64,000 nt of DNA, from positions 1 through 64,000 of IMG/VR virus record IMGVR_UViG_3300009008_000008. One strand, written 5' to 3'. Each line of letters opens with the position of its first letter. Positions within the stretch are counted from its first letter, which is position 1. The translations under genes were made by a program, and so were the position numbers. This document shows positions 43,119 to 63,891 of this stretch, one piece after another. The notes beneath the pieces are model-generated. The model was not told the DNA's origin. It worked only from the letters and a program-made list of their open reading frames with translations, and made no database searches. Source of the stretch: an uncultured virus (IMG/VR IMGVR_UViG_3300009008_000008) (Duplodnaviria; Heunggongvirae; Uroviricota; Caudoviricetes).

Positions 43119-43840
43119 CCGTTTACTCCTCTGTTATGTCGTGCTGTCCTCTGTAGGTACCGTTGTAGGGCCCCAACAGCAGGAAAAGTTTGCCCACCAT
43201 TAGCCGCCATCCATCCATTGAATTTGGTCTCCAAGAATAACGTTTGAAGAACCAAAGACTGGTTCCTCAGCGTTATCAAAGGGACTTCCATCACCCTGTT
43301 TTGCTCCCTGGCTCCCGCTTTATTTACAAAATTGGGATCATAAGGACTCCAATAAAGTATATGCACACCCTTATACCACACCAGGTATAAACAAAGTGGT
43401 TTGTCTCCTGAAGACAGGATAAAATTAGACCGAGGGCCTAGGTAAAAAGCCGACAACAAACGACTTTGGGCAGGGAACCTGCTTATCAACGCTGCCACCG
43501 CGTCAGTGTAAGGAACACTGGTAGTATCCAGTTGGGCGAAACCCTCCAAGAATTCTGACAGGTGCTCGGTATTCCTGGTAAAAACGGAGTGGGCGGCGAG
43601 TATGTAACCACCTCTCTGTGGTATGTGTAAGTCCTGTGACCCTGAAGAGATGCAAAAGTCCACGGGTGAAGGGCCCGGTAATTCCCTGAGACCTTCCTTG
43701 TTTTTAACCGACCCGCCTACCATCGGTCGGCTAGGAGGGCCCTGAAGGTCAGTAAAGAATAATCGGTGGATCTCCAGTTTCCGGTCTTCCGTTACAACGT
43801 AGTCTTTTACCGGAAGGATCCAGTAACCAAGAGTTCTCAT
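43115..43840 (-). CDS. hypothetical protein, possibly a degenerate class-II glutamine amidotransferase fold
   Basis: coupled to queE; weak resemblance (AAHS...N, TD, DKPL, YWS); no N-terminal Cys. Confidence 0.45.
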   Translation of the reverse strand: MRTLGYWILPVKDYVVTEDRKLEIHRLFFTDLQGPPSRPMVGGSVKNKEGLRELPGPSPVDFCISSGSQDLHIPQRGGYILAAHSVFTRNTEHLSEFLEGFAQLDTTSVPYTDAVAALISRFPAQSRLLSAFYLGPRSNFILSSGDKPLCLYLVWYKGVHILYWSPYDPNFVNKAGAREQNRVMEVPLITLRNQSLVLQTLFLETKFNGWMAANGGQTFPAVGALQRYLQRTARHNRGVNG

Positions 43841-44613
43841 TAGTAGTACCCTAACAGTTTATGTTGTTGAGCAACCACCCGGATGTTATATCCTTGGTTC
43901 CAGTTCAGGATCATCTGGGTGATGCGTTGGAGTTCCTTAGTAGGAACAGGGCCCTTGGTGTTGTCAGCACAGGGCGTAAGGATGATTGGGTGTGACATAA
44001 AAGCGTGGTCTTGTAACAACCCACTGAAATGTTGTAATAACCAATCCAGGTCTTCTTGGTCTCGTACCACTGCCTTGGCATATACCTGGGGCATCTTCTC
44101 GATAACTTGGTAAAGGGCTGCCAGCACGTCGGCCCCCAATTCGACACCTGTATTTGGCGTCTTGATATCCAACGACACCTGATCAAAACAGTTAAAGGCT
44201 TGGCTGTCAATGATAGTACCGCTAGTCTCCAGGTTTGTTCGCAACCCTCGCCGTCGAAGTAAAGTCGAAAGGCGGGTTACTTGGGGGCGGTAGTGGAGAG
44301 GTTCGCCCCCTGTAATGGAAACCTCCACCACTTTACCTTTGACTATCTTTACCAATCGGTCCGCAAGCGAGGAGACCTCAGCCAAGGGGTGTTCTCCTAC
44401 TGCCCAACTATCCTTGGTATCACAAGTAGTGCAGCCTACAGCACATCCGGATACACGGATAAATAGCCTGGGTACCCCTATGTTTATACCCTCCCCCTCC
44501 AAAGTCTCCTGGATTTCCATCACAGGGAGAACATCGTCGGGCACCTCATGGATTCCCAGTTTCAAGAGGTTACACTTAAACTTGGGTACCACCACATTGA
44601 TCGGCTTAATCAT
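43840..44613 (-). CDS. queE: 7-carboxy-7-deazaguanine synthase-like radical SAM protein
   Basis: EIQETLEGEG...FIRVSGCAVGCTTCDT, ITGGEP, ETSG, QQHK. Confidence 0.85.
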   Translation of the reverse strand: MIKPINVVVPKFKCNLLKLGIHEVPDDVLPVMEIQETLEGEGINIGVPRLFIRVSGCAVGCTTCDTKDSWAVGEHPLAEVSSLADRLVKIVKGKVVEVSITGGEPLHYRPQVTRLSTLLRRRGLRTNLETSGTIIDSQAFNCFDQVSLDIKTPNTGVELGADVLAALYQVIEKMPQVYAKAVVRDQEDLDWLLQHFSGLLQDHAFMSHPIILTPCADNTKGPVPTKELQRITQMILNWNQGYNIRVVAQQHKLLGYY

Positions 44614-46682
44614 CCTTCGACTCCTTCATAAAATTCAGTGTTCAGCGGGAAGTGTTCGTCCAACCAAGGTTGTATCCGTTTGCCTTCCGCACGAATCATT
44701 GCCATTGTCTCTTCTACATTTACATTGTAGCCAATTTCATCGCGTTGACGTTCTAACGCCGACCGGATGTTGTGCAGGAGGTTTTTCTTGGTGTAATCCC
44801 ACTTTTGCATGGCGTCCCCGGAAGCCCCTATGTCAAAGTCTACCGCTAGCCCTACGTTAAACTGGAAATGAAACGTCTCTGCCACTTTCTGCTCAACGCC
44901 GACTGTAGTACACCACTCCAGCAATCGGAGGACCAAAGGAATATACCGATAGTTCACCTCCACTTCAACGCTGTCATGGACCATCATGGACGGGTAAAGG
45001 TTCGTTGGAACCCCTATCGACTGGAGTTCTTCCCCGTCAGGATCCAGCCCATATAAGTCCTGTAAGCTTTCCCACAGTTTTTCACTGTACAGGCGTGCAG
45101 CAAGGAATCCCAACTGGCTGGCGAATCCCTGAATAGGGCTGTTGGCCGCCCGTCGTTTCATGGCGGACACCAGACCAGGAACCTCTGTCATGTAAGCAAA
45201 CAGGTTTCGCTTGAACCCCAGAGGGTTGTAGGTGTACAAACGGTCGGCACTAAAATCGCATGTCCACTGGATCCAGTTGCCTGCCTTGAAAAACTTGGCA
45301 AAGAAACCGCCCTTCACCTTTTTCATCTCAGCTTCTGACTTTCCAGTGTCCCGAGCCAAAGACCTATCCGACTTACCATACATGGTCCCAAAGGTAATCA
45401 CCTTTGAATCCTGCCGTTGTTCCTTTGTCACCTTCTCTACAGGTGTGCCAGTAAAGAACTGGTAGTTAAGTTTGTGGGGGTCGCCCTTCTCTTTTAAGTC
45501 GTCTCTGTGCCGAGCGGTCGGTTGCTGGCGGAACCGCAGACGGAGGTTGTGCACAACCTTAAACATCATGGCCAGCACGGCATCCTTGCTGATGATACCC
45601 CAACAACGCACCTCATGAGCGGCATAATCAAGCTTAATAACCAAACAACCCACACGGGCAGTGAATGAACGTTTGATAAACTTGGCATCAGGACCGTGTT
45701 GGGGTGTTTGTTGGAGGCTTGGTTCTGAGCTATTACTGCGCCCTGTCACAACATCCTTAAATCCATACTGCGGACGTAACCTGTGGTCCACCTTCCCGTC
45801 ACGGGATTTACCAATCTTCTTGTAGAAGGCGTTGACATAGGATGTGAGCAACTTCTTGAGCTTGGACAAGGTGGTGAAGTCAGCCACCTCTGGATGTTCT
45901 TTGTACTTTTTCTGGAATGCGGCGTCTATTGAAGCGGCATCATCCTTACCTGTTGACAGAGGTTCCAGCCCCATCACCTGGATAAACAACATCTGTTTGT
46001 GGGCGGCTTTATTGGGATCAAATACCCAAGCCTGGGTGTTACCAAATATACCACCGCCTGGGGGAACCCCTTGTACTTCACACAACAATCGGTTGGCGGT
46101 CTGGACATGTTCTGACTCTCTCATCTGAGCCGCGAGTTCCTTCCGTTTGGCCAGCACTGGGGACCGTCGGCGGTCGCGGAGCAACAACAGGTATTCGATA
46201 TCCAGATGGGCTCCTGTTTGTTCCATGCCACTCATCACATGGACAGTATCCGACATCTGAGTAAGCAATAAGCGCCTATAAAACCTTCTGTAGTTGTGTT
46301 TACCTACCCGTTGGAGGGCCGCCCTTTCTTGCTGGAGTTCATGGACACGGAAGCAAGCTTGAGTATCCATTGCACAATAGTCTAATACCTCGTCAGACAG
46401 GTCTCTGTTGGCTATGTCTTGACGGTCATCTTTAGAAAACCTGGCGTCATAGTAAAAGGCGTTCCCATAGTAGGCCAATATTTGTGCCAACCCATAAGCT
46501 GGTGTACCGTACAGCATCAACACCTTCATGTTCTCGTCAAGGCAATTGTGAACCAAAACTGGTTTATCACTAATTTCATTACAAATAAATAGGTTGTGAT
46601 TATCCTGTACCGTAACATCACATACCATAGGTGGGGAGTCAACCACCTTTACCGACTTAACTCTTACAGTTCGGGTAACCAT
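44610..46682 (-). CDS. polA: family A DNA polymerase, C-terminal part, with N-terminal split-intein C fragment
   Basis: YCAMD, TGRSNSSEPSLQQ, LDYAAHEVR, RQDSKVITFGTMYG, NSPIQG, VHDS. Confidence 0.93.
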   Translation of the reverse strand: MVTRTVRVKSVKVVDSPPMVCDVTVQDNHNLFICNEISDKPVLVHNCLDENMKVLMLYGTPAYGLAQILAYYGNAFYYDARFSKDDRQDIANRDLSDEVLDYCAMDTQACFRVHELQQERAALQRVGKHNYRRFYRRLLLTQMSDTVHVMSGMEQTGAHLDIEYLLLLRDRRRSPVLAKRKELAAQMRESEHVQTANRLLCEVQGVPPGGGIFGNTQAWVFDPNKAAHKQMLFIQVMGLEPLSTGKDDAASIDAAFQKKYKEHPEVADFTTLSKLKKLLTSYVNAFYKKIGKSRDGKVDHRLRPQYGFKDVVTGRSNSSEPSLQQTPQHGPDAKFIKRSFTARVGCLVIKLDYAAHEVRCWGIISKDAVLAMMFKVVHNLRLRFRQQPTARHRDDLKEKGDPHKLNYQFFTGTPVEKVTKEQRQDSKVITFGTMYGKSDRSLARDTGKSEAEMKKVKGGFFAKFFKAGNWIQWTCDFSADRLYTYNPLGFKRNLFAYMTEVPGLVSAMKRRAANSPIQGFASQLGFLAARLYSEKLWESLQDLYGLDPDGEELQSIGVPTNLYPSMMVHDSVEVEVNYRYIPLVLRLLEWCTTVGVEQKVAETFHFQFNVGLAVDFDIGASGDAMQKWDYTKKNLLHNIRSALERQRDEIGYNVNVEETMAMIRAEGKRIQPWLDEHFPLNTEFYEGVEG
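46545..46682 (-). mobile_element. split intein C-terminal fragment (46 aa)
   Basis: MVTRTVRVKSV...VCDVTVQDNHNLF...VLVHN|C. Confidence 0.92.
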
Positions 46683-47741
46683 ATGAAGACCTCAGAAATA
46701 CGTATGTTAGTGGAGCGGCGAGTGTTTGACCAAAAAATAAAGTTAACTCAAAAATTTGTACGAGACATGTCACCAAAACTCTTAGGATATTGCCAAAAGG
46801 AAGCTCTGCGAATTTATGGAGGTAAATACCCACCCTGGTGGGCTATTCTCTATAAAGTTATTTACAAGGACCACTATCGGTGCCGGTGTGGGTCCGAAAA
46901 ACTAGCTTGGCAGGGTTGGGAAGGCGGTCTGGCGGAATACTGTTCCTGTAAATGTGCAGGGGCCTCTCCGGATGTTTTGAAAAAGAGGGAACATACTTGC
47001 CAACAAAAGTACGGTACTAAACATGTACAATCGGTACCTAGTATACGTGCTAAATTTAAACAGTCTATGGTACGAAACCAAGGAGTAGAATACACAGCCC
47101 AAAGCCCACGCTTAAAAAAGAAGATGCGTAAAACACTCAAAAAGAACCATGGAGTCGAAGAAACTTTCCATTCCATGGTTCTTTATGGTAAAGCAAAGGC
47201 CACCATGTTACAGAAATATGGTGCTGAGCATAACCAACAGGTCCCCCACCTGTTTGAACAACAACAAAGGTCAGGTTTTAAAATACGTACCATAAAAGTT
47301 AATGGGAAACGGTTTAGGGTACGTGGAGGGGAAGGTCATGCTATAAAATACCTTGTCCACGAACTTGGGTGTTCTATAGACGAAATTTACACGACGGCGG
47401 TACAAGGTAAGCCATCCATCCCTTGGTATGACAATAAAAACAAGTACCACATATATCACCCTGACATCTATGCCAAAGTTAAAGGGCGATGGTTTATTAT
47501 TGAAGTCAAAAGCACGTATACAGCGGGTATAACCACCAAGTCTGGGGCTGAGTTTTACCGGCTACGTATGAAGGCAAAGGGTGTGGAAGAGGCCGGTTAC
47601 AATTTCAGGACACTCCTTGTCCATTATGGACGGTCCCTCCCTCTTGACTACCGTCCACTTGTTATTAAAGACATACACCAAAAGACCAGAAAACAGGTTA
47701 GGTCTGAAGTAAAACTTCATCGTCAGAGGTTAGGTTCTTAG
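46683..47741 (+). mobile_element. free-standing putative homing endonuclease, PD-(D/E)xK (TnsA-like) C-domain
   Basis: KYG repeats; YHPDIY...IIEVKS; visibly AT-richer; lone + gene inside a - strand operon. Confidence 0.8.
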
Positions 47742-49092
47742 CTTTTACATAGGAACCTCGGGTAACCGACCAAACCTCATGGTCTTCAGTAACGCGAATG
47801 GATCCCCCTTCATAGGATATTTCCACCATTCGTTGGTCTGTTGGGTGGGTAGAAGTAGCTAAAAGTGGTTTATATTCTTCCTGTTGTGTTTTATGGTTAT
47901 ATGATAAAACCTGAGGAGGATTCCCCATAACCACCAAGTCTTTCATTTGTACCATACCACGTTCCGTTACCACCCAAGACTCTGGGTGTATACAGAACTC
48001 ACCGGCAATGGTGTCCCAAACAGGCCAATAAATGAATGGGAGATCGAACTCCTGACGTATAATACGAAGGTCAAATTTGGCGTTGTGCATAACCAAATAA
48101 CGAGGGGATTTAGGCTGCCATTCCACTCGTTGCCCAAAGTAGGCACGTAGTTCCTTAAATATTGTGCGGAACTCTGATCCTGAGAATGGGGTATCACGAT
48201 GGTGTACAGGGAGGATAAAAGCCCTGTCGGGATTGTCTGAGAATTGGAGGGTCTGGAGTTGGTTATGATGAACGGACAGGTTCTTGGTCTCTGAGTCAAC
48301 GGAAACCACGGGAGCCCGTTTAATGACCCTCATCATACGCTTAAACTTGCTCAACGTATCGATGAGGATTGGATTTGGCCGCACCTCGGAGGCCGTAAAT
48401 GGGAGTCGGTCCAAAAACGCCGACATGAGAGTGCGTCCGATATATCCAAGAATATTGGCCTGGGTGATGGCTTCATCCATCTTTGTCTGACTCTCGGCAT
48501 CGGAGTCATTGTCCATGTCGGTACCACGCAAAAAATAGGTGTGGTCGTACCGTATGGTGTTGGTGACCAGGACAGGCTTCCCTCGCACTTTGATAGCATG
48601 GGGCCAACCCCTTTTATGTGAAATGTCATCCACCCGGGGTAACAGGGATTCTGCCGCTTCATCCCCAAATACTATCACGTTCGTCGGATCCATCTTGCGA
48701 ACAAACGCCTTTACTCGCTTAGAAGCAGCATCATTGGCGTGCTTACGTCGGGCACCTTTGAGGTGGTAGGTCTTGAAGAAATTGAAGTTGATGGTGGCAT
48801 AAGCCACCGATTCCTCAATGGATTCTGGGTTGACAAGAGCACATTGTCGGCGGGCAAATTGTAGGAGGTTCGTGACAACGGTGGCGCCGGTTCCTCGATC
48901 CAATAACGCCTTTTCCTTGAGGTCTTTACCATCCACATGTTCTACCACCAGAATAACACGGCGCCTGGCGGTCTTCCAGTTTTTCGTTATAGGGATAGCT
49001 ACGTCAAATGCGGGGCATTCCTTTGGGCTCCAACCCTCTGGAAGATCGTTTTGGAAAGTCACATAACGCATCTGCCGGCGGTCTGTTATCAC
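47698..49092 (-). CDS. polA: family A DNA polymerase, N-terminal part (UDG-like + 3'-5' exonuclease) with C-terminal split-intein N fragment
   Basis: VSVDSET (Exo I), HNAKFD (Exo II), WDTIAGEF|CIHP. Confidence 0.9.
   Translation of the reverse strand: MITDRRQMRYVTFQNDLPEGWSPKECPAFDVAIPITKNWKTARRRVILVVEHVDGKDLKEKALLDRGTGATVVTNLLQFARRQCALVNPESIEESVAYATINFNFFKTYHLKGARRKHANDAASKRVKAFVRKMDPTNVIVFGDEAAESLLPRVDDISHKRGWPHAIKVRGKPVLVTNTIRYDHTYFLRGTDMDNDSDAESQTKMDEAITQANILGYIGRTLMSAFLDRLPFTASEVRPNPILIDTLSKFKRMMRVIKRAPVVSVDSETKNLSVHHNQLQTLQFSDNPDRAFILPVHHRDTPFSGSEFRTIFKELRAYFGQRVEWQPKSPRYLVMHNAKFDLRIIRQEFDLPFIYWPVWDTIAGEFCIHPESWVVTERGMVQMKDLVVMGNPPQVLSYNHKTQQEEYKPLLATSTHPTDQRMVEISYEGGSIRVTEDHEVWSVTRGSYVKAKNLTSDDEVLLQT
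47701..47994 (-). mobile_element. split intein N-terminal fragment (98 aa)
   Basis: CIHPESWVVTERG (block A), IRVTEDHEV (block B), YVKAKNLTSDDEV then stop. Confidence 0.92.
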
Positions 49093-49733
49093 TGGCGTGC
49101 TCCCAGTTGAGGGTGTTTTTGGATGGCAGACTGGGCGGCTGCCAGTATATCTTCTGGTGGTTGGTCGGCATTGATTTGGTCTACTGACCTGCCCCTGAAC
49201 AAGGGAGATCGGTGTAGGTTCTCAAAGTTGTAGGCTACGCGGTCGAAGAAAGCCCGATCCTCTTGTTCCATTCGATCCAACCCACGTTCAATCCTGGCCA
49301 TTGCTTTAACCGGATCCATCAGCAACAAAAGAGTCAGGTGTGGGAACACTCCCTGGACGGCCATGGCAGAAGCGGCCCGAAAATTGTCAACTGAAGTACG
49401 GCGACCACCTACTTGGTAAGCGAACGTACTGTCAATAAACCTATCACAGATAACCCAGTCTCCTCGGTCCAAAGCAGGCTGGATTACCTGGTGTACGTGT
49501 TGACAACGAGCGGCTGACACCAACAATAACTCGGCATCCCCACATAGGTCAGTCTCTGGGTCCAGAAGGATACTACGCATCCTTTCTCCAGCGGGAGTCC
49601 CGCCAGGTTCCCTTGTCACGACTACCTCCACCCCTTGGGTCTCTTTAACCCAAGGGATCAGACCTTTCAAAAGGGTGGTCTTCCCTGTACCTTCACCACC
49701 CTCAATAGCAATAAACCTTCCGCTCATAGCCAT
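49089..49733 (-). CDS. tmk: thymidylate kinase
   Basis: FIAIEGGEGTGKTT, TREPGG, CDRF, AYQ. Confidence 0.95.
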   Translation of the reverse strand: MAMSGRFIAIEGGEGTGKTTLLKGLIPWVKETQGVEVVVTREPGGTPAGERMRSILLDPETDLCGDAELLLVSAARCQHVHQVIQPALDRGDWVICDRFIDSTFAYQVGGRRTSVDNFRAASAMAVQGVFPHLTLLLLMDPVKAMARIERGLDRMEQEDRAFFDRVAYNFENLHRSPLFRGRSVDQINADQPPEDILAAAQSAIQKHPQLGARQ

Positions 49734-50378: not shown

Positions 50379-53300
50379 TTATTCGTTGCCTCCTGAGTCT
50401 TGTTTGGTAACCTTGAGTTGTTTATACTCTTCCTTCACTTGGTCGAGGTTACGAATATCATAACCTGCATCTACCATCTCCTTTACCTTGTCCTTGGCAT
50501 CGTTCTTGGACTTGGCGAAGTAGAACCACTCTCCATTGGAACGCTCCCACTTGACTCCCGGTACCTTGGCTTTCTGCCTCAGCGTCTTGGAAGCAGGTTG
50601 GGTGGGAATCGTAGCACAGATAAAGAGCTGGCCGTCTTGGATAACCGGGTACGGCCGCAGTATGGTTGGTTTTCCAACAGGGCGGAACCGCATACGGAAG
50701 AAGTTCTTGATATCCATCTGAGTGGCTTTAGGTACGTTCAACAGGCGTCCTTTGCCTTGGTCAAATGCCTGTTGAAGGCGACGAAGGGTACGGACGAAAC
50801 TGCTCCGCATTTCGTAACCCTCGACTAAGGCATCCACCATAAGCGCCATCTTTTGCTTGTTCGGGATATAGGCAAAAGCGTAAGCCGGGATCAGATGGAA
50901 CCCAAGATCCTGCATCTCACTTGCAGGCGGAGCATCAGGGTCGTCGTCATCAACGGTCACACAAATGATGTTGTTGGCGACCGTCAAGAACGCCTCAAAG
51001 CCATTACCTGCCTGCTTGTCACCTGTTGGAACAGGCTTCCGAACTTGGTCCCCACTTGGGCCCACCGGCTGTTCATCCTGGTCTTCGACTACCTCTGTGG
51101 GATCAACATCCATGCGGGGTTCTTCTTCGGCAGGAGGCTCTTCTTCCATCTGTTGTTGGGCATCATCCATGAGATCTTCAACATGGTCTTCTGCCTGCTT
51201 CTTAAGCTGGTCTTTATGGTCCTCGGCTTGTTTCTGTTCTTCCTCCTCATTGGTGGGCTCCTGTTCAACCTTAAGTTCCTTGATACCCTCACCTTCCGGC
51301 TGTTCGTCTGTAGGTGGAAGTCCTTCGTCCACCGGAGCCTCTGGAGTCTCCTCTGGTCCCATCTCTTGCGTTTGTTTCATAACCCGACGTAGGCGCCTAC
51401 GTTCACGCCGCAATTCCTTTTCCAGTTCCTCGTTACCTTCTTGTACAGCCTGCTTGATCTTGACGGCAGTTTGTTTAATCTCCATCTGGAGTTCTTCAAC
51501 CGTACGCCCGTCAGGCACCAAAGCACGCCGACGTTTTTGTTGACGTGAGGCTTTACCCGCTTTGGTCGCCGGGGCATTGGTTTTGTCACGCTGGACCTGA
51601 GCGTCAGAGCCAGTGTCTGGAACATTAACGGGCTCACCAACATCAATAACCCCTACCGTGGGTAAGCCTAGCAAACCAACCAGACGTTCTTGGACCGGAG
51701 CGGTATCCTCAGACTGGATGATAAAACTCCGCATCTTGAAAGCCGACACTGTTTGACCACTTGCCAGCTTGACCCTGATCTTGTTCTTAGTACCCCCAAC
51801 AATAACACCATCCCCGAACTCTGTGTGGACACGGGCATTCACCGGGGTGAAATCATCCAACTCTTGCCCGTTGTCCTCCGCATAGTTGGCAAACGTCGAT
51901 ACCCCGAGTTCGTCCATGTATGGCAACACCTGCCCGTCAATGTAGGGCACACCTACCATATACTGAGAACCCTCGAGGTCTGGGGCCGTAGCCACCAACC
52001 TTGGCTTTTTGTGGTGCTTGGGGTTGTTCTTATAGTTCTGGAAGTCCTTATGCTCTGCCTCCTTGTATGTGTGGAAGCCTTCCAGATACTGAGACAGGTT
52101 GGTCTCGAAATCGTTCTTCTCAGTGATCGAATCCAGTGTCATCGACACCAGTGGAAGGTTCGGTACTCCATCGTACAGCGGGTTACCTTGCTCATCGAAA
52201 CGAACCTTGGCCAACATTTTGGAGATCAAGCGGCTGATCTTGGTGACATCAATGGATTGGTCACAAATCACCCAGTCAAAGTACACTTTGTCACGCTCGG
52301 CAAACTGCCCTTTCGGATCCGGCCGGAAGATACGCGACTCTGCCTGGTCCAACGCTCCGGGGCTCCACACCGACTCAACCCTAATCAACCGACTCGCCAT
52401 TTGGAGGTTGAGGCCTTCCTCCAGAGACTTGCCCACACCGATCAGGATCTGGATACGGTCATCCTTCATGAACTGGGCGACATGCTTGGCTTTCTCCGAA
52501 GCATGGTACCGAAGGGCCCGGCTCTGCAAGTCAGGAGGCAGGCCCTCGTACATGGCATCTGCTGATCGGTTGTAACCGCAGAACACCAGAATCTTGCCCG
52601 GGATACCCTGGCTGATGTGCTGGTTGCACAGCTTCGTAACCTGCATGGCTTTGGGGCTGACCTGGTCTGCGGGGTCCTTCAGGAGGGCTTCACCATCGTG
52701 GTCCATCGCAGGCGCCGACAGGAACTTTTCCATCCGTTGCATGTAGGGCCGTAGCAAAAACTCGATGTTCTCAGCTTCTACTTCATCACCAGACCTCAAC
52801 TTGGACAAGAGGTCTTCGTTTTGGGCGATGAGCTCCAACGTCTGCTTGAGGATCGAATCGTAGACCGTCCGTTGGTTGGGCCTCATCTTGACAAAGTGGA
52901 AGTTCTCCACACGCTTTGGCAGGAGAGCCGCCCATTCCTTCCTCTTAATGGTAACAAGGTTGGAAAACTGGCCTACTCGTTGGGCGATCTTCCGCTCAGC
53001 GTCAGGCTTCCAGCTCAAGACCTTTCCACCACGCCAATCCGAGGCATAGGCTTCGATGAACTTTTTCCTATTGCCAAAGGTAGCGGGGTCGATCATGTTA
53101 AACTGACCGACAATATCCGTCATCTGGTCAGTAACAAAGGTACCAGTTGCCAGCCTACGATAAGGGATATCTGCCGCTAGCCGTTGAGTAACCTGGCTAC
53201 GAGTGGACGCTGGGTTCTTGACATTGTGGCTTTCATCCAGCGCGATGTAGTCGAACCCAAAGGACCGCAGCATCTCGCTGTTGTCACCAATCTTAATCGG

Positions 53301-55784
53301 TTCTGGACCGTAGGACTCTTCGCGGACACGACCCTTGATGAAGTCGTAGTCAGATACCACGATGGTATTCCGAGGTGCCTGTTCCAGGACTTTCTGGAGG
53401 CCTTCCTCTCCATATTGACGGAAAGTCTGGGTGGTGATTGGGATCATGTTCATCTTCCCTTTGAACAGGAAGACGCCATCCTCAATGTAGTTCCGCACCA
53501 AGTACCCAGGACACAAGATAATACCTCGCGTTACCTTGCCAGCCTGGACCAACCGAATCAGGTCCGTCAAGATCAAAATCGTTTTTCCGCCCCCCGGCGA
53601 CACATCCAGGATCGCAAACTGCGGATCCTGCACAAGATAGTTCTGGGTCTTCATCTGATGAGGCAGGAACGAAAACCCTTCGACATAAGGGAGAGCCGTA
53701 GGCTCTGCGTTGGGGTCGATCTGTGGATCGATGTAGGGTTGGCGCCTCTTGAGGTCAGCAGCAACCACCTGGTCATACTTGGAAGCGTACTTGGCAATAC
53801 ACAGGAGTTGGGCAACCTCTTTCATACCGTTTAGTACCGAACGCCCTGAGAGGGCCGCTGTCGGGTCCCCCTCAACCAACTTCCAAGCGGCTTCGACCAT
53901 ACGCCCGAGGGGACGGAGGGCCGGGACAGGGCTGTTGGAGGACACCAGGTGGAGTTTCCAGTCATCCATGGACGAATGTTGTTCCACCCATTCAGGCACA
54001 TCAGCGGGGTTGGCAGACCGATCGTAGTCGTAGTAGGTCTTCAGATCGCGGACTGCGGAGTGTACTTTCCTGACGATCTCCCCTGGCGACATGTCAAAAT
54101 AACCTCCTAGGATGTTGCGGAGACCCCAAGGTACACTGTACTTGTCGTCAGGGCTGTACTTTTCTGCCTGGGCAGGGTTCAGCAAAGACAAGAGTTCATC
54201 CGACTGACCAACGGGACCATCACCCATGAAAGAGTTAAGGTCGGTACCTCCGTCAGTCAAACGGTTGGCGGCGCGGCCGAGGTTCTCTAAGAGTTCTTCT
54301 TCCTCGTTATATCCAAACAACGGACGCTCCAACAAAGAAGCAATCGCGGTAGACTGGCCACTGGCAAAGCCTTCCAGGCTCCAGATTTTGAGAGCCGCAC
54401 TCGTATCAGTGTAAGCAAGCCGGTTGTTTACCCAGTCTGTGTACACCAACATATTGGCGGGGAGTTTCTTTGGCTTGACGGGTTCTTCACCTTCATCCAC
54501 AGATACTCGACGGCGCCGACCAGATGGTTGTTTGACATCCTGGAAGGTGACTTCTTCCCCACCATGTTGGGAAGCAAAATCTTTCACTTCCTGGTCATAG
54601 GCGTCAACGTTATCAGATGTTGGAATCCAAACCAAATCCCCTTGGAAGGTGATGGACAGACCATCCTCGTTAACACGAGGCTTCACATCACCCTGCACAT
54701 CGCTGTTAGAGTCACGGATGTTGCGGATGGGGTTCATCCGCGGTTGCCACTTTTCACCCTTCTTGAACAACCCTTGGATCCATTGTTGACTCCACAAGAG
54801 CATGTCACTGGCTTCTGCCTGGGCAAAGGGCGTTTGGATTATGTACTCCGCGTACTCAGCAGGAACGTGCAACACCATTGATGTAAAGAAGTCCCGAGAG
54901 TTCAATGCCTGTGCGGCGAATCCAATTGGATTGGCGGCGTCTTTGATGCTGGTCAGTGGACTCTCTTTGTTGATGTCGGACTCATTGTATAGACCGCCAC
55001 CATACCCCAAATCCTTGGCATCCAACGGAGGTGACATGAGGCGGATCATCTTGACGTATTTTTTGAACAACGCCAGAGAGTCCTTGGAAACCGCCAAATC
55101 AGAATGGGTGGGGTCGAACCAAGGGCTTGTCTCAACAGCATCAGACGCCCTGTAGGTGTGATCGACTGCTTGGGATATGTCGAAGAGGGCAGGACCTGGG
55201 AATTTATTCAACGCCTCAATCATTTGTTGTTTAAGTGCGTTGGCCTCTGGGTTGTTGTCACCCCAAGGCATATAGGTATCAACACTGCGTGCGATGCTGG
55301 AGAAATCAAAAGCGGCCCCAATGGTACCACCAAGAGGGATCGTAAGGAGGAAACCATCATCGGCTTTTTTGACACGAATCTGGTTGGTTTTCTCTGCAAT
55401 GGCTGCATGAGAGGCATCAGAAATTGCTAACCTTGGGTTCGGCTCCTTGGGCTCGTCCCGCTGTACCTGGAGGTTATCCATAAAATGAGTAATGAATTCG
55501 TTCTGGGCCCCACTTACTGCCAGCCGAACAAACTCCCCAAACTTATGCAGGACAGGCTTCAAAAAAGCCTTCTTGAAAGACTTGGGCTCAGGCACTGCCG
55601 CCTGGAGTTGGCTGCGAACGCCTGCTTCTTCCAAATAATGGAAGGGTTTGACCTTGGACACCAATGGAACCGGGCGTTGCCAGCTGGAACGTGTGTTAAC
55701 ACGCCCGGTCACGCCGTTACGGCGTTGTACCTTCAGGCCCTTTATGACTTTACGGTTCGGGATCCTTAGTTTCAGTCGTCGCAT
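50379..55784 (-). CDS. large SNF2-family ATPase/helicase (1801 aa)
   Basis: LPHQ, SPGGGKT, LDESH, ATGT, EGLNLQ, QAESRIFR. Confidence 0.9.
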   Translation of the reverse strand: MRRLKLRIPNRKVIKGLKVQRRNGVTGRVNTRSSWQRPVPLVSKVKPFHYLEEAGVRSQLQAAVPEPKSFKKAFLKPVLHKFGEFVRLAVSGAQNEFITHFMDNLQVQRDEPKEPNPRLAISDASHAAIAEKTNQIRVKKADDGFLLTIPLGGTIGAAFDFSSIARSVDTYMPWGDNNPEANALKQQMIEALNKFPGPALFDISQAVDHTYRASDAVETSPWFDPTHSDLAVSKDSLALFKKYVKMIRLMSPPLDAKDLGYGGGLYNESDINKESPLTSIKDAANPIGFAAQALNSRDFFTSMVLHVPAEYAEYIIQTPFAQAEASDMLLWSQQWIQGLFKKGEKWQPRMNPIRNIRDSNSDVQGDVKPRVNEDGLSITFQGDLVWIPTSDNVDAYDQEVKDFASQHGGEEVTFQDVKQPSGRRRRVSVDEGEEPVKPKKLPANMLVYTDWVNNRLAYTDTSAALKIWSLEGFASGQSTAIASLLERPLFGYNEEEELLENLGRAANRLTDGGTDLNSFMGDGPVGQSDELLSLLNPAQAEKYSPDDKYSVPWGLRNILGGYFDMSPGEIVRKVHSAVRDLKTYYDYDRSANPADVPEWVEQHSSMDDWKLHLVSSNSPVPALRPLGRMVEAAWKLVEGDPTAALSGRSVLNGMKEVAQLLCIAKYASKYDQVVAADLKRRQPYIDPQIDPNAEPTALPYVEGFSFLPHQMKTQNYLVQDPQFAILDVSPGGGKTILILTDLIRLVQAGKVTRGIILCPGYLVRNYIEDGVFLFKGKMNMIPITTQTFRQYGEEGLQKVLEQAPRNTIVVSDYDFIKGRVREESYGPEPIKIGDNSEMLRSFGFDYIALDESHNVKNPASTRSQVTQRLAADIPYRRLATGTFVTDQMTDIVGQFNMIDPATFGNRKKFIEAYASDWRGGKVLSWKPDAERKIAQRVGQFSNLVTIKRKEWAALLPKRVENFHFVKMRPNQRTVYDSILKQTLELIAQNEDLLSKLRSGDEVEAENIEFLLRPYMQRMEKFLSAPAMDHDGEALLKDPADQVSPKAMQVTKLCNQHISQGIPGKILVFCGYNRSADAMYEGLPPDLQSRALRYHASEKAKHVAQFMKDDRIQILIGVGKSLEEGLNLQMASRLIRVESVWSPGALDQAESRIFRPDPKGQFAERDKVYFDWVICDQSIDVTKISRLISKMLAKVRFDEQGNPLYDGVPNLPLVSMTLDSITEKNDFETNLSQYLEGFHTYKEAEHKDFQNYKNNPKHHKKPRLVATAPDLEGSQYMVGVPYIDGQVLPYMDELGVSTFANYAEDNGQELDDFTPVNARVHTEFGDGVIVGGTKNKIRVKLASGQTVSAFKMRSFIIQSEDTAPVQERLVGLLGLPTVGVIDVGEPVNVPDTGSDAQVQRDKTNAPATKAGKASRQQKRRRALVPDGRTVEELQMEIKQTAVKIKQAVQEGNEELEKELRRERRRLRRVMKQTQEMGPEETPEAPVDEGLPPTDEQPEGEGIKELKVEQEPTNEEEEQKQAEDHKDQLKKQAEDHVEDLMDDAQQQMEEEPPAEEEPRMDVDPTEVVEDQDEQPVGPSGDQVRKPVPTGDKQAGNGFEAFLTVANNIICVTVDDDDPDAPPASEMQDLGFHLIPAYAFAYIPNKQKMALMVDALVEGYEMRSSFVRTLRRLQQAFDQGKGRLLNVPKATQMDIKNFFRMRFRPVGKPTILRPYPVIQDGQLFICATIPTQPASKTLRQKAKVPGVKWERSNGEWFYFAKSKNDAKDKVKEMVDAGYDIRNLDQVKEEYKQLKVTKQDSGGNE

Positions 55785-59085: not shown

Positions 59086-59382
59086 TCACTCCATCTTGAA
59101 AAGTTTTTGAAAGTTGGCTACTTCCAGTATTCTACGGACGCCAGGACGTGCGTGACGTAATACTACACGCTTGGGTCCTAGCTTTTCGTTGGCTATTAAC
59201 AGAATACCAAGGGCAGCACTATCAATGTACCTGGCATGTCTTAGGTCAACCACAAGATTCTGGTCGGGTTTAACCTGGTCCATAGCCTTCCGAAACATAC
59301 CATGACATTCAAATTGGAAGGTACTGGGTGGTACAAACACCACTTCCTTACTATCCGAGTGTATTTTGCACTCCTGTTCCAC
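59086..59382 (-). CDS. STAS-domain anti-sigma-factor antagonist-like protein
   Basis: VVDLRHARYIDSAALGILL with conserved phospho-Ser; VRRILEVANF..LF. Confidence 0.88.
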   Translation of the reverse strand: MEQECKIHSDSKEVVFVPPSTFQFECHGMFRKAMDQVKPDQNLVVDLRHARYIDSAALGILLIANEKLGPKRVVLRHARPGVRRILEVANFQKLFKME

Positions 59383-60086
59383 TATGATACTCCACTTGCG
59401 AAGTCTATTGCCATCTGCTTCGCGTCATCCATCGTTTCCGCCTGCCACTCCCCACGCCCTCTGTTAAACTGCTCAACATGGTCTGTATAGATGACCTGAC
59501 TTTCATCACCTTTTGGCCAAATTTCATAGGATACATGGATGTTTACACTGTCACCGTCCTCGTGGAGAGTGATCTCTTTGTTCTGGTACATGTCATCTGA
59601 GTACCATGCCTCAACGTCCTCGAGGAATTCCTGTGGGTCGGAAGGGTGAAAAGCACAATCACCTTTCTTGACTTTGGAGCCGACTCCAAACCCATACATG
59701 GCGCGGTGACTCCACCCATACCACTTTTGTTTGGCCTCACAGTATCCAACAGAGCAGACATTGTGGTCGGGTGCTGACAGTTCGGGTACGATTCCTCGTT
59801 TTGCCAAAGAGGCAGCGAACTCGGGATCCCCTATATAATCCCCATCTAGGTTGTATGCACTCTTCATCTCCAGCGGCTTATTGGAACCCGACTCTCCAGG
59901 CGGAATCTCTTCGGTCCTCACTTGGTAAGTAGGGAACGTCTGTATGCTTAGGACCTTTCGCAAACTCGACAAGGAGAGCCGGGCTAGGGCCTGAAACCTC
60001 AGGCCCTTGCTAGGCACCATGGCACAAACTTGGCCGCGGTGTATTACTGGAATACGTGGAAGCAGGACAACCCGTAGGGATTTCAT
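59382..60086 (-). CDS. hypothetical phage protein
   Basis: KWYGWSHRAMYGFGVG...AKQMAIDFA domain. Confidence 0.7.
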   Translation of the reverse strand: MKSLRVVLLPRIPVIHRGQVCAMVPSKGLRFQALARLSLSSLRKVLSIQTFPTYQVRTEEIPPGESGSNKPLEMKSAYNLDGDYIGDPEFAASLAKRGIVPELSAPDHNVCSVGYCEAKQKWYGWSHRAMYGFGVGSKVKKGDCAFHPSDPQEFLEDVEAWYSDDMYQNKEITLHEDGDSVNIHVSYEIWPKGDESQVIYTDHVEQFNRGRGEWQAETMDDAKQMAIDFASGVS

Positions 60087-60909: not shown

Positions 60910-61878
60910 TCATTTTTCTAGGTTGAACGTCTCAACCAGCTCTTCCCTAGTCATGATCTTGATGCCAAGGTTAACCGCTTTCCGCTCCTTGGAACTGCCA
61001 GTACCTTTAAGTTTCATCACCAGGACTGTCACTTTCCTGGAGATGCCGCTGGCGATAGTACCGCCCTCACGTTCGATTTGTTCTTGTAAGTCTTTATCCC
61101 TGAAGCCGGTAAACACCACAATCTCACCCGACATCTTGTCACCCTCTGGAGGAGCCACAGGACCTAGTGTTTCAATGGTAATCAGGCGTTTGATGGGTTT
61201 TACGAAGGCCTGGAATTTGGGAAATCCTTGGGCAAACTGCTTGGCACGCTTACTGCTGAACCCAGATACAGACAGGGCCATATGCTCCAAGTCCCGAGGG
61301 TTAGGTCTGTTAAGATCCATGATCTGCGGGTATTTCTCAACCAGTGGTGTTAACTGCCGTACACCAAAGCCAGGACCGAATACCCCAGAAGCCGCCATCA
61401 ATACGGGCAGAGACACTGGATTCAAAGCTTTCTTAATCCCGGTGACGATGGTGGTGGCCGTTTTATCCTGGATGCCAGGAACCGCCATCAAGTCTTTTTT
61501 CGTGGCTCGGATAACGGCTTCGATGGAGTCGATTCCATGAGTAGCCAACCGTTGGATTGTACCTTGAGCAAAGTTTTCGACTTCAATGGCCTTAAAAAAC
61601 CAAGCAATTTGTTTTACCAACTGTTCGTCGGTGTCCCCCGTGGCGCGTATATCGACACCAGAGGAAGTCCATTCAAAGTTACCGTCTTCCGGTAATCCTG
61701 CCTTGCGGCTAGGAGCAACAACCTCCAAAATATGCGGGATAACATCTCCACTCCTTGTAATCTTGAGGACCGCACCAGGCCCTACCTTGTTGTCGTTGAT
61801 GAACTTGGCATTGAAACCAGTTACCCGACGGATAGTTACCCCTCCCAATCTAACACCAGGACGTACACTTTTAGCCAT
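60910..61878 (-). CDS. ligA: NAD-dependent DNA ligase, C-terminal part (rest of OB fold, HhH, BRCT)
   Basis: VRLGGVTIRRVTGFN, ITRSGDVIPHI, VVFTGFRD...GG BRCT; own AAAGGGG SD. Confidence 0.9.
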   Translation of the reverse strand: MAKSVRPGVRLGGVTIRRVTGFNAKFINDNKVGPGAVLKITRSGDVIPHILEVVAPSRKAGLPEDGNFEWTSSGVDIRATGDTDEQLVKQIAWFFKAIEVENFAQGTIQRLATHGIDSIEAVIRATKKDLMAVPGIQDKTATTIVTGIKKALNPVSLPVLMAASGVFGPGFGVRQLTPLVEKYPQIMDLNRPNPRDLEHMALSVSGFSSKRAKQFAQGFPKFQAFVKPIKRLITIETLGPVAPPEGDKMSGEIVVFTGFRDKDLQEQIEREGGTIASGISRKVTVLVMKLKGTGSSKERKAVNLGIKIMTREELVETFNLEK

Positions 61879-62908
61879 GGTGTATCCCCTTTAAAATCTG
61901 AGTGCGTGTCTTCCGATACCAACCTCGTGGCAAAACTATGCGTTTGGGGGAGCCGTTATCATTTTGCATAACCAAAAGTCGAAAGATAAAACCATCCTTC
62001 ATTGTCTGTCGGGCTTTAGCACACAAAATGTGCCATAAACGGTCAGGGGAGCTTTTATGTAATCTATGGTTTGTTAATCCTGCCGTGTGTAAAGACTTTA
62101 CTTCTATAAGTATGTTACGGTCCGGGAGGAACAAATCGGGGTAGTACCTACGGTTCTTTCCGTCAAGTTGGTAATATACAACCGGCACTTCGCGGTCACT
62201 AAATACTCGGATCCTTGAAGGATCCACCCCTTTTTTGTGGAGTAACCAATCCAATGCTAGGTCTTCATATCCTTGTACCTGAACGACCCGGGAACCTAAC
62301 GTATAAGAATGATAAAATCTTGTGCTGGAACAAGCATTACATGCCAAGCCTCGTTTAGCCAACACGGAAGAAGGGCGGGCCGTAAATAAGGCACCGCAAG
62401 AAAGGCATTTATGTTCTATTGGAACACTAATACCCTTATACACTCCTATAGGCTGTAGGGCTTTACCTAATTTCTCCAACCTCTCACCGTATCTCTCTGT
62501 GGTATGTAGGCCATGTTTTGACGGGTTGCATGATCGACAACCAACACCACGTTTAACAGCCTCTGTGGTATACCAATCCTGGGTATTACAAAACTTACAT
62601 TGATACAGGTTTTTGGCATTCTTCAACCGACGATAACCTTCCATAACATAAAAGGAAGAGTTACGGATTTCTGTCATATGGTTGCACATCGAATGGAAAT
62701 TCTGCAACCTATCAGAGCAGGCAGGGCAGTTAAGGAACCCGTTTTTCGTGGTCCTGGGTTTAGTTATAAACCCATTACCGCAGATCTTACAATAATGGCT
62801 ACAAGGTACGTGAACACCGGAATACCCGGAAAGGTACCCTACCAAAGTAGAATCCAAGGATTTAATATACTCTTGTTCTCTTACCTCGAGAGATTTAGAC
62901 ATACCCAT
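61871..62908 (-). mobile_element. free-standing putative homing endonuclease, zinc ribbons + PD-(D/E)xK (TnsA-like) domain
   Basis: repeated CxxC pairs; QGYE, YYPDLF...LIEVKS; visibly AT-richer. Confidence 0.82.
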
Positions 62909-63891
62909 TACATCGGTTCCACTATGACAGTAGGTTTCAAAATACCATGCTTAGACACGTTCCATTCTACACTCACCACCCTACATTTCACTATCTGATC
63001 CTCCATCAACATCTTGAAGGCTACGCTGTACCGAGGGTTGCCAGATGTGGCGCGTTTGTATATTGAGTCCTGTGTGACCACCAGACCGTCTATGGCAAAC
63101 TTAGAGCTCTTCCGCCTCGCAATGAGTCTGTCAGAGAGTGTCTGGGCGTCCAGGACCTTATAGGCCTTGGCAGGAGCGACCGTGAATCCAAGCTGGTGTT
63201 TCAGGTAGTTGAGCTGTTCGGAGGGTTTCTTGCGTGGAACGATGAGTTCGTAGCACACCAAGGTGGCGTCTTTGAGGGCAGGGCTGACATCCGGGCGGTT
63301 GACCAACCCACCCATGAAATTCCGTGGGTTTGCGAAGTCCTTGGCGTACTTCTTGAACGCCGTCTCGGACATGATGATCTCGGCCCGTACCGCGAAGGTG
63401 TCCTGTGTCTTGGGAAGCCCAAGAATTGGCACCATGGACGTTACATCCTGTCCGACCTTACCGTTACCTCGGGTAAACAGTTGGTACCGGCCCTTGGTAC
63501 AGATGATAAGCATTGAGATGCCGTCCATCTTGTCCGACACCACGTAGGGCCCTGGGTTGGCGTCAAACCAACGGTCAAGGTCTGGAGTGTTGGGTTTGAT
63601 CTTGTCGAGGGAACCCATCCAATAGGGCAGTTTTTGTTTCTTACCCTGATCGACAGGAGCGCCTACTTTTTGGAGCAAAGGGCTGTCAGGGAACCTCTGG
63701 CGGAACGTATCCTCAATCGCGTCAAACTCGGCGTCTGACAAGAAAGGGCTTCCCTTGTAGTACGTGTTCTTGGCCCGGCGGTATAACTGACGTAGCAGCC
63801 GAGCGGACAACTTTGAGGCATAACCTCCAGGGTCTGCCTTTAGGGCTGTCAAATCGAACTCATACGCTGCCACTTCCCTCAACCTTTTCAT
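62908..63891 (-). CDS. ligA: NAD-dependent DNA ligase, N-terminal part (Ia + adenylation + start of OB)
   Basis: YY...SDAEFD, MGSLDK, KMDG, TRGNG, NPRN, IDGLVV, AFK, VEWNVSKHGILKP..IVEP then stop. Confidence 0.92.
   Translation of the reverse strand: MKRLREVAAYEFDLTALKADPGGYASKLSARLLRQLYRRAKNTYYKGSPFLSDAEFDAIEDTFRQRFPDSPLLQKVGAPVDQGKKQKLPYWMGSLDKIKPNTPDLDRWFDANPGPYVVSDKMDGISMLIICTKGRYQLFTRGNGKVGQDVTSMVPILGLPKTQDTFAVRAEIIMSETAFKKYAKDFANPRNFMGGLVNRPDVSPALKDATLVCYELIVPRKKPSEQLNYLKHQLGFTVAPAKAYKVLDAQTLSDRLIARRKSSKFAIDGLVVTQDSIYKRATSGNPRYSVAFKMLMEDQIVKCRVVSVEWNVSKHGILKPTVIVEPM

Follow-up and report, generated by a model that had tools for sequence, protein, structure and literature searches.

In phage Aeh1, the gene nrdA is split by the free-standing endonuclease gene mobE, and the available text of the report describes the tails created by the insertion as essential (Crona et al. 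2011, PMC3045599). Phage T5 distributes its NAD+-dependent DNA ligase over two genes, dnlj1 (324 amino acids, aa) and dnlj2 (260 aa), which are separated by a 202-bp spacer that contains promoters and no endonuclease, and which a source available in excerpt names as the ligA and ligB subunits (PMC3632103). The fractured genes described in the accessible portion of Dassa et al. 2009 include a DNA ligase broken by a split intein and an intein-less SbcD-like gene split by a Vsr-like endonuclease, with gene 43 of phage 25 cited there as a further gene split by an endonuclease without an intein (PMC2677866). Here, we describe an NAD+-dependent DNA ligase gene (ligA) that is interrupted within the region encoding its OB fold by a free-standing endonuclease gene. 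It lies on the minus strand of a 64,000-nucleotide stretch of an uncultured caudoviricete genome (IMG/VR record IMGVR_UViG_3300009008_000008, positions 1 to 64,000; hereafter the window). We consider it likely that the two ligase pieces work as a non-covalently assembled, two-chain enzyme.

The locus resembles each of the known systems in part. As in Aeh1, a gene of DNA metabolism is cut into two open reading frames (ORFs) by a free-standing endonuclease with neither an intron nor an intein, and short insertion-created tails flank the break; in Aeh1, function is restored by non-covalent assembly. A preliminary description of the window had cited this precedent of a gene that works as two polypeptides (PMC3045599). 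The two cases differ in that the host gene here is ligA rather than nrdA, with assembly of its two products being predicted. Furthermore, the nuclease belongs to family DUF7487 with a restriction-endonuclease-like fold, whereas that of Aeh1 is of the HNH type, and the insertion-created tails, at just 1 and 8 residues, show no conservation beyond a final glycine.

The resemblance to T5 lies in a phage NAD+ ligase that occupies two adjacent genes jointly covering full-length LigA. Aligned to Escherichia coli LigA, dnlj1 covers the protein up to about residue 390, and the match of dnlj2 sets in at about residue 402. T5 LigA is thus cut after the OB fold, in contrast to the break in the window, which falls inside the barrel at about residues 344–345, some 50 residues earlier; an endonuclease fills the gap here in place of the promoter-bearing spacer. 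Chains A and B of PDB entries 9HU3 and 9I5I match dnlj1 (E = 9.4e-104) and dnlj2 (E = 7.6e-79), respectively, and the second chain is named “DNA ligase subunit B”. A literature search, with subscription journals outside its coverage, found neither a paper on these entries nor a published LigA break inside the OB fold. With the fractured genes of Dassa et al., the locus shares a setting in which a free-standing endonuclease gene (Vsr-like or GIY-YIG in that study) separates the two parts of a gene for replication or repair on phage-like DNA from the environment. Unlike the fractured ligase in the accessible portion of that study, the window ligase has no split intein. The preliminary description knew of no described two-part LigA; T5 dnlj1/dnlj2, PDB 9HU3/9I5I, and the ligase in the accessible text of Dassa et al. 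(PMC2677866) are such precedents.

Results

Two ORFs Together Encode a Complete LigA

The ligase is encoded by two ORFs located 1032 nt apart, and not by a single continuous polypeptide (Table 1). The upstream ORF (N-half) ends with the residues GILKPTVIVEPM followed by a stop codon, and the downstream ORF (C-half) begins with MAKSVRPGVRLGGVTIRRVTGFN. In the 656-position profile PHROG 3869, the N-half covers positions 7–335 and the C-half positions 336–654. Similarly, the N-half aligns with residues 13–344 of Thermus LigA (PDB 1dgs), and C-half residue 9 begins at residue 344. Most relevant to the junction, tblastn alignment to 77 unbroken loci placed N-half residue 327 and C-half residue 9 on one and the same codon in 59 of them, so that residues 1–326 of the N-half and 9–322 of the C-half make up one complete LigA. 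The continuity of the joined halves that had been read by eye across the junction is thereby borne out against uninterrupted phage ligases. By the same alignments, Met327 and the stop codon of the N-half, together with the eight-residue leader of the C-half, come from the insert. The break is located approximately one-third into the OB fold, after the first two strands, at about residue 344–345 of bacterial LigA.

Both halves had been described as otherwise intact, which agrees with their retained length and motifs. The adenylation domain of the N-half matches PF01653 (E = 7.3e-17; cut-off, 27 bits). Its KxDG lysine is K121, within DKMDG, and K121, D123, and G124 are unchanged across 13 aligned sequences; the other invariant positions of this domain are likewise retained. 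The N-half also contains the stretch YY..SPFLSDAEFD, a candidate part of the N-terminal domain Ia, which is needed for NAD+. The C-half enters the OB-fold family PF03120 at position 26 with its residue 9 and continues to position 76 of 79 (E = 9e-10), with the first 25 positions being carried by the N-half, and it further matches the helix-hairpin-helix family PF14520 (E = 7.6e-9) and the BRCT family PF00533 (E = 8.7e-8). RSGDVIP and 45 other invariant columns are retained among six split C-halves, introduced below, at 37–44% identity. The Cys4 zinc-finger domain PF03119 was not among the Pfam matches of the ligase at E ≤ 0.1; it occurs in only one of 80 listed relatives (P0078), indicating that the zinc finger is not required in this phage clade.

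The Junctions Are Gene Overlaps without a Rejoining Element

The endonuclease gene is joined to both ligase halves by overlaps that can be read directly on the minus strand, in agreement with the translational coupling proposed previously for both junctions. At the upstream junction, the N-half stop and the endonuclease start share a base in a TAATG overlap. At the downstream junction, the endonuclease stop codon (TAA, 61873–61871) sits within the first codons of the C-half, and a Shine-Dalgarno-like AAAGGGG in the last endonuclease codons, 7 nt before the ATG at 61878, would act as the ribosome-binding site for the C-half. Ligase homology of the C-half begins at residue 9, as judged by PHROG 3869, the Pfam OB family, 1dgs, and tblastn to the 77 unbroken loci. 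These details had all been given correctly.

The gap between the halves is entirely occupied by the endonuclease ORF, which overlaps both. The two halves share a reading frame, and the connecting frame across the insert is rich in stop codons. An Rfam scan of the region at E ≤ 10 identified no intron family, its sole match being a chance hit to a long non-coding RNA (E = 2.4), and a Pfam search identified no Hint or intein family on either half. Measured against the 77 unbroken relatives, the N-half has a single non-ligase residue at the break and the C-half has eight, too few to be the pieces of a split intein. The lack of an intein, an intron, and non-coding space noted in the preliminary description is therefore upheld. 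A promoter scan returned one sigma-70-like site (4.2 expected), and terminator-like sites numbered six (3.2 expected), none of them at a gene end.

Further Records and Contigs Confirm the Split Arrangement

The IMG/VR record spans 128 kb, of which the window makes up the first half, and has an estimated completeness of ~50%; a sister record (G001) extends to 168.9 kb, with an estimate of 65%. Three further IMG/VR records share a 6-kb stretch, insert included, at 99.88–100% identity. Contigs from three public runs, possibly including the record's own source, bridge the insert-bearing stretch without a joint. In a second study, a contig of 157 nt reaches across the endonuclease/C-half junction. 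The runs that hold the stretch are labelled as marine or seawater metagenomes. No insert-free form was present among the contigs matching the stretch, with the limit that contigs drop rare variants. The split arrangement is thus confirmed as real and is no assembly accident. Within the three genes, the population differs at two positions, one synonymous (endonuclease) and one non-synonymous (Q223R in the C-half). A megablast search with the 3.2-kb region yielded no DNA-level relatives among isolated phages.

The Same Break Occurs in Diverged Ligases

Ligases of isolated phages (for example, GR11A, Lauda, PaBG, and phiRSL1) are 30–39% identical to the window protein and continuous. Likewise, a scan of viral contigs with a C-half alignment recovered 80 loci, of which 77 are unbroken and three represent the same phage; in the 77, the N- and C-half matches lie in one frame, separated by −42 to +51 nt. 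The picture is different among predicted proteins. The junction motif is present in 100 of 105 C-half hits, and 14 hits begin no more than 20 residues away from it. Among the 105, four non-self hits (P0082, P0083, P0084, and P0086; 37–44% identity; contigs no longer than 23 kb) carry a short foreign leader directly before (V/I)xLxGV. Three others are ambiguous as split copies (P0098 and P0155, MP/VKLGGV with the slash marking the junction, and P0085, which starts two residues later), and the remaining six start within ligase sequence and look like truncated calls.

On the N side, a script identified two of 80 hits that end no more than 12 residues after the KP motif, the window protein and P0008, which ends in ...YLKPVVIVEE and is 47% identical to the window N-half. 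The script missed P0012 (35.6-kb contig), which ends in ...YLKPSPD. The P0008 locus was not found among viral contigs and is present in a metagenome collection as two contig ends, L089 and L090. In L090, the N-half is followed by a 356-aa ORF and by a C-half starting with MSKG/VKLGGV, which is the same break. The ORF in the gap is unrelated to the window endonuclease by BLASTP (best E = 3.7); it shows helix-turn-helix matches, weak matches to PHROG families labelled “HNH endonuclease”, and an H...N...N motif by eye. Its neighbor in an atlas of features (0.91; HNH in 86% of members) serves as a lead only. The gene therefore looks like a helix-turn-helix protein with an HNH-like nuclease part. 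Weak structural neighbors include DUF7487 clusters (TM scores of 0.29–0.30), and a very distant relation to DUF7487 may exist. Taken together, the alignments place a break at this codon in at least five diverged environmental ligases, and in one of them the interrupting gene is unrelated and HNH-like.

Two features are shared by the split copies. All six leaders that abut the junction (window, P0082, P0083, P0084, P0086, and L090) end in glycine. In addition, six of seven split sequences have an [RK]R pair three residues past the junction (C-half residues 17–18, window positions ~61825–61830). KR is present at that position in eight of 64 unbroken sequences; most have E, Q, or T followed by an aromatic residue, and in ten the script found no motif. 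The pair could reflect adaptation, co-converted flanking sequence, or shared ancestry. More generally, the pair and the glycine-ended leaders may mark split alleles that have adapted to the break.

Separately, the N-parts of P0002 and P0015 (on 8- and 27-kb contigs) end about 30 residues later in the OB fold, after ...NKIG/NLG. Such ends elsewhere in the fold (P0002, P0015, and P0012) may point to further endonuclease sites in the domain.

Occupied and Empty Alleles Are Mixed on the Tree

A quick maximum-likelihood tree was calculated from 71 C-parts, 64 unbroken and seven split, leaving out L009–L011 (same phage), L039 (stop in the match), L064 (short match), and 11 identical duplicates. Six of the seven split sequences cluster with four unbroken ones in a ten-member group of weak support, and L090 is placed elsewhere. 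The split label requires five changes on the tree, one of them forced by well-supported branches, and 7 of 500 shuffles were as low. The split copy P0084 is sister to the unbroken L012 (Shimodaira–Hasegawa-like approximate likelihood ratio test, 94; 65% identity), with branch lengths of 0.22 and 0.26, respectively, indicating no rate acceleration in a split lineage. On this tree, alleles with and without an insert are interspersed among relatives that are not far apart, the pattern that a homing element would produce. We propose the conserved EP-(V/I)-x-LGGV stretch as the most likely homing site; this would account for unrelated endonucleases being present at one and the same codon.

A bolder reading is that the codon after EP is a long-lived endonuclease slot. 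According to it, an entire group of marine phage ligases would have been two-chain for a long time, with the barrel completed across subunits, while unrelated endonucleases (DUF7487 in the window, HNH-like in L090) replaced one another. We regard this extension as tentative and rather doubtful.

The Two Halves Are Predicted to Rebuild the OB Barrel

Structure prediction of the two halves as a complex (co-fold) yielded a score of 0.71 (runs of 0.71, 0.73, and 0.70), compared to 0.00 for the best of three controls. The mark applied is reached by 116 of 157 solved complexes and by two of 215 mismatched pairs. Between runs, at least 68% of contacts were in agreement, and the partner had a predicted local distance difference test (pLDDT) value of at least 79. 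The interface comprises N-half residues 295 and 299–327 packed against C-half residues 7–79, that is, the two pieces of the OB fold. The barrel rebuilt from both chains is what the preliminary description would predict; the model shows that the pieces fit a known fold, a likeness rather than binding.

The ligase appears to have no counterpart in the sequenced part of the genome. The ATP-dependent ligase domain PF01068 is absent from the 128-kb record and from the 168.9-kb sister record, and the former has a single copy of PF01653, the LigA adenylation domain. The split LigA is hence the only DNA ligase detected in these incomplete records.

Discussion

A Model for a Two-Chain Ligase

Based on these data, a simple model would suggest that a mobile, free-standing homing-type endonuclease gene, with zinc fingers and a DUF7487 domain, inserted into a phage DNA ligase gene. 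The insert would have brought along a stop codon for the upstream half, and a ribosome-binding site, a start codon, and an eight-residue leader for the downstream half. The ligase would then be made as two polypeptides from one coupled transcript, and the chains would reassemble non-covalently by pairing of the N-half strands at residues 299–327 with C-half residues 7–79, completing the OB barrel. The product would be an active NAD+-dependent, nick-sealing enzyme, comparable to the pieces of Aeh1 NrdA and to T5 LigA/LigB. This two-chain reading is the best supported of those considered, drawing on the intact halves, on the same break in diverged lineages, and on the co-fold, and in our estimate it is probably correct. 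The proposal of a two-chain ligase made previously is therefore established in its first part, the endonuclease split inside the OB fold, and its second part, reassembly, is inferred from the same three lines of evidence.

Several points weigh against the model. The break is within a β-barrel and not at a domain hinge as in T5, making reassembly more demanding. The co-fold score may reflect memory of the full-length LigA structures in the PDB. With records that are ~50% and 65% complete, another ligase may be encoded elsewhere in the genome, and many phages manage with the host ligase, so that loss of function would be tolerable. The two population differences are too few for testing selection on the ligase halves, synonymous sites are saturated between the window and L090 at 47% protein identity, and no RNA runs are listed among those containing the stretch. 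Among the relatives, P0082, P0083, P0084, and P0086 are known as split from their leaders alone, their inserts being unseen, and the tree does not separate one old split from repeated invasions.

The strongest competitor to the two-chain enzyme is that the insertion inactivated the ligase, the ORFs being still-intact remnants, and that the phage uses the host LigA or a ligase in the unsequenced part of its genome. The position of the break inside a folded domain and the incompleteness of the records would be compatible with such a loss. The near-identical copies show a young sampled population, in which decay might not yet be visible, and the sole substitution in the ligase is non-synonymous. 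We nevertheless judge inactivation unlikely. The same break is accompanied by full length and all conserved motifs in lineages that have diverged to 37–47% identity, the branch lengths give no sign of faster evolution in the split lineage than in its unbroken sister, and at its two borders the insert precisely supplies a stop as well as a ribosome-binding site and a start codon. It is also conceivable that the two products have separate functions and do not rebuild a ligase; the N-half might, for instance, work by itself as an adenylyltransferase and the C-half as a scaffold protein with BRCT or DNA-binding function. Half-size LigA-derived proteins and odd fusions in metagenomes (adenylation plus polymerase-beta domains: P0006, P0026, P0068, P0073, and P0075) offer a parallel for such repurposing. 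However, OB pieces are conserved on both chains although neither alone can fold into a barrel, the genes remain adjacent and coupled, and the co-fold interface is the OB fold itself, which together make separate roles a very improbable outcome.

The preliminary description had also left room for an unrecognised route by which the halves would be rejoined covalently, through RNA splicing, protein splicing, or a long-range translational bypass with take-off at the ATG before the N-half stop and landing at the ATG at 61878. The shared reading frame would suit such a route, and the ATG-TAA end of the N-half and the ATG start of the C-half superficially recall matched take-off and landing codons. 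The searches brought nothing in its favor: intron families went unmatched in the Rfam scan at E ≤ 10, one ORF with stops in the connecting frame fills the insert end to end, and the halves have no Hint domain and too few extra residues for an intein, whereas the true split intein of a polymerase elsewhere in the window can readily be recognized on inspection of the sequence. The matched-ATG pattern is missing in L090, where the N-half ends in GAA-TAA, and a 1-kb hop would exceed known bypass distances, such as that of T4 gene 60, by ~20-fold. Covalent rejoining thus appears extremely improbable, slightly more so than separate roles. Least credible, to the point of being negligible, is an assembly chimera, a concern raised by the lower G+C of the insert relative to its flanks; it is countered by the four IMG/VR records in all that carry the insertion, by the jointless spanning contigs of three runs and the second-study contig over one junction, by both junctions being in-phase gene overlaps, and by the occupation of the same site in L090.

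Implications of a Break inside the OB Fold

With this locus, a LigA cut in its OB fold joins a short list of essential phage genes that apparently survive in pieces with no splicing element. Since the principle is already established by Aeh1 NrdA, T5 LigA/LigB, and the fractured genes of Dassa et al. 2009, the gain is one of detail and not of kind. Activity of the two chains would have three consequences. The OB barrel would be seen to tolerate a two-polypeptide build, and engineers of split ligases would have a natural position for the cut. One conserved motif of the protein would be the common target at which unrelated mobile nucleases land. A single genome would also contain two repairs of endonuclease damage, by a split intein for the polymerase and by simple reassembly for the ligase. 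Should the slot reading be true, covalent and non-covalent repair could be compared side by side, as a natural experiment, in this genome.

The Inserted Gene Encodes a DUF7487 Endonuclease

The 345-residue product of the inserted gene matches DUF7487 (PF24308) with 52.8 bits (gathering cut-off, 27; E = 6.4e-14) and PHROG 559, labelled “HNH endonuclease” in that library (E = 3.7e-19). It produced no match in NCBIfam and nothing below E = 0.3 among PDB chain sequences. A word-based search retrieved three related proteins only, compared to 3491 representatives at E ≤ 1e-3 and 721 at E ≤ 1e-10 in an exhaustive search. The G+C content of the insert is 0.41–0.46, versus 0.52–0.57 for the N-half.

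A model predicted from an alignment of 41 sequences has a mean pLDDT of 90.9. Its N-terminal two-thirds contain three CxxC...CxxC modules, presumed to form the DNA-recognition part; in the alignment of 41 homologues, C124, C127, C171, C190, and C193 show little or no variation. The match to the treble-clef family DUF4379 is weak in this protein (E = 0.022) and strong in a paralogue in L094 (E = 2.4e-22). In the catalytic domain, D258, E269, and K271 are invariant in the 41 sequences and correspond to the canonical D...ExK motif. The best VIA-align matches of residues 191–334 were to Vsr (1cw0; Z = 7.8, root-mean-square deviation [rmsd] 4.2, 122 aligned), TnsA (1t0f; Z = 7.5, rmsd 3.1, 108 aligned), and I-Bth0305I (3r3p; Z = 5.5, rmsd 4.2, 86 aligned), Z values that are below the level of kin and from which only a common arrangement can be claimed. 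A Foldseek search with the model returned no match at E ≤ 0.001, the best being RecE of the same superfamily (E = 0.014). The core resembles that of restriction-endonuclease-fold nucleases such as Vsr, I-Bth0305I, and TnsA. Its motif is the D...ExK triad, compared to the His-based Vsr site mentioned in the accessible text of Dassa et al. (PMC2677866). Judged by motifs and model, the insert looks like an intact homing-type endonuclease with an active nuclease.

The sister record contains three DUF7487 genes, one in the ligase, one in the polymerase, and one that is intergenic. The last (L094, positions 1393–2691 of G001, minus strand) lies between PTPS/QueD-like and phosphoribosyltransferase genes. 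It combines four DUF4379 treble-clef fingers, a CapR-homology domain, and DUF7487, and splits no recognisable gene.

Table 1. Positions of the split ligase, its insert and junctions, and the split polymerase in the window.
Feature	Positions	Strand	Description
LigA N-half	62908-63891	minus	ORF, 327 aa; putative domain Ia, adenylation domain, first third of OB fold
TAATG overlap	62906-62910	minus	last base of N-half TAA stop is first base of endonuclease ATG
Endonuclease ORF	61871-62908	minus	345 aa; frame other than that of either ligase half
Zinc-finger-like part	62330-62794	minus	three CxxC...CxxC modules; endonuclease residues ~39-193
Predicted catalytic domain	61907-62338	minus	restriction-endonuclease-like PD-(D/E)XK fold, motif ...YYPD...ILIEVKS; residues 191-334
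AAAGGGG, Shine-Dalgarno-like	61886-61892	minus	in last endonuclease codons, 7 nt before ATG at 61878
Leader MAKSVRPG	61855-61878	minus	eight non-ligase codons; first ones overlap endonuclease stop
LigA C-half	60910-61878	minus	ORF, 322 aa; last two-thirds of OB fold (with RSGDVIP), helix-hairpin-helix, BRCT
Family-A DNA polymerase, exonuclease half	47698-49092	minus	split ORF, ends in intein-N
Paralogous DUF7487 endonuclease gene	46596-47741	plus	between polymerase halves
Family-A DNA polymerase, polymerase half	44610-46682	minus	split ORF, starts with intein-C

A Split-Intein Polymerase and Neighboring Genes

In the family-A DNA polymerase of the window (44610–49092), the two halves have the split-intein arrangement that Dassa et al. 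2009 describe for fractured genes (PMC2677866). An intein-N, CIHPESWVV...TEDHEVW, closes the upstream half, and the downstream half opens with an intein-C, whose final residues ...VLVHN are followed by a cysteine.

Genes near the polymerase (43840–44613, 49089–49733, and 50379–55784) include those for a QueE-like radical-SAM protein, a thymidylate kinase, and a 1801-aa ORF. Just downstream of the ligase, a 234-aa ORF (59382–60086, minus strand) matches the Pfam family Tad6, a Type I Thoeris inhibitor (E = 1.7e-48), and is likely an anti-defence gene. Among the metagenomic relatives of the ligase, LigA adenylation and DNA polymerase beta-like domains (PF14791, PF14792) are fused in P0006, P0026, P0055, P0068, P0071, P0073, and P0075, an unusual ligase–polymerase X combination.

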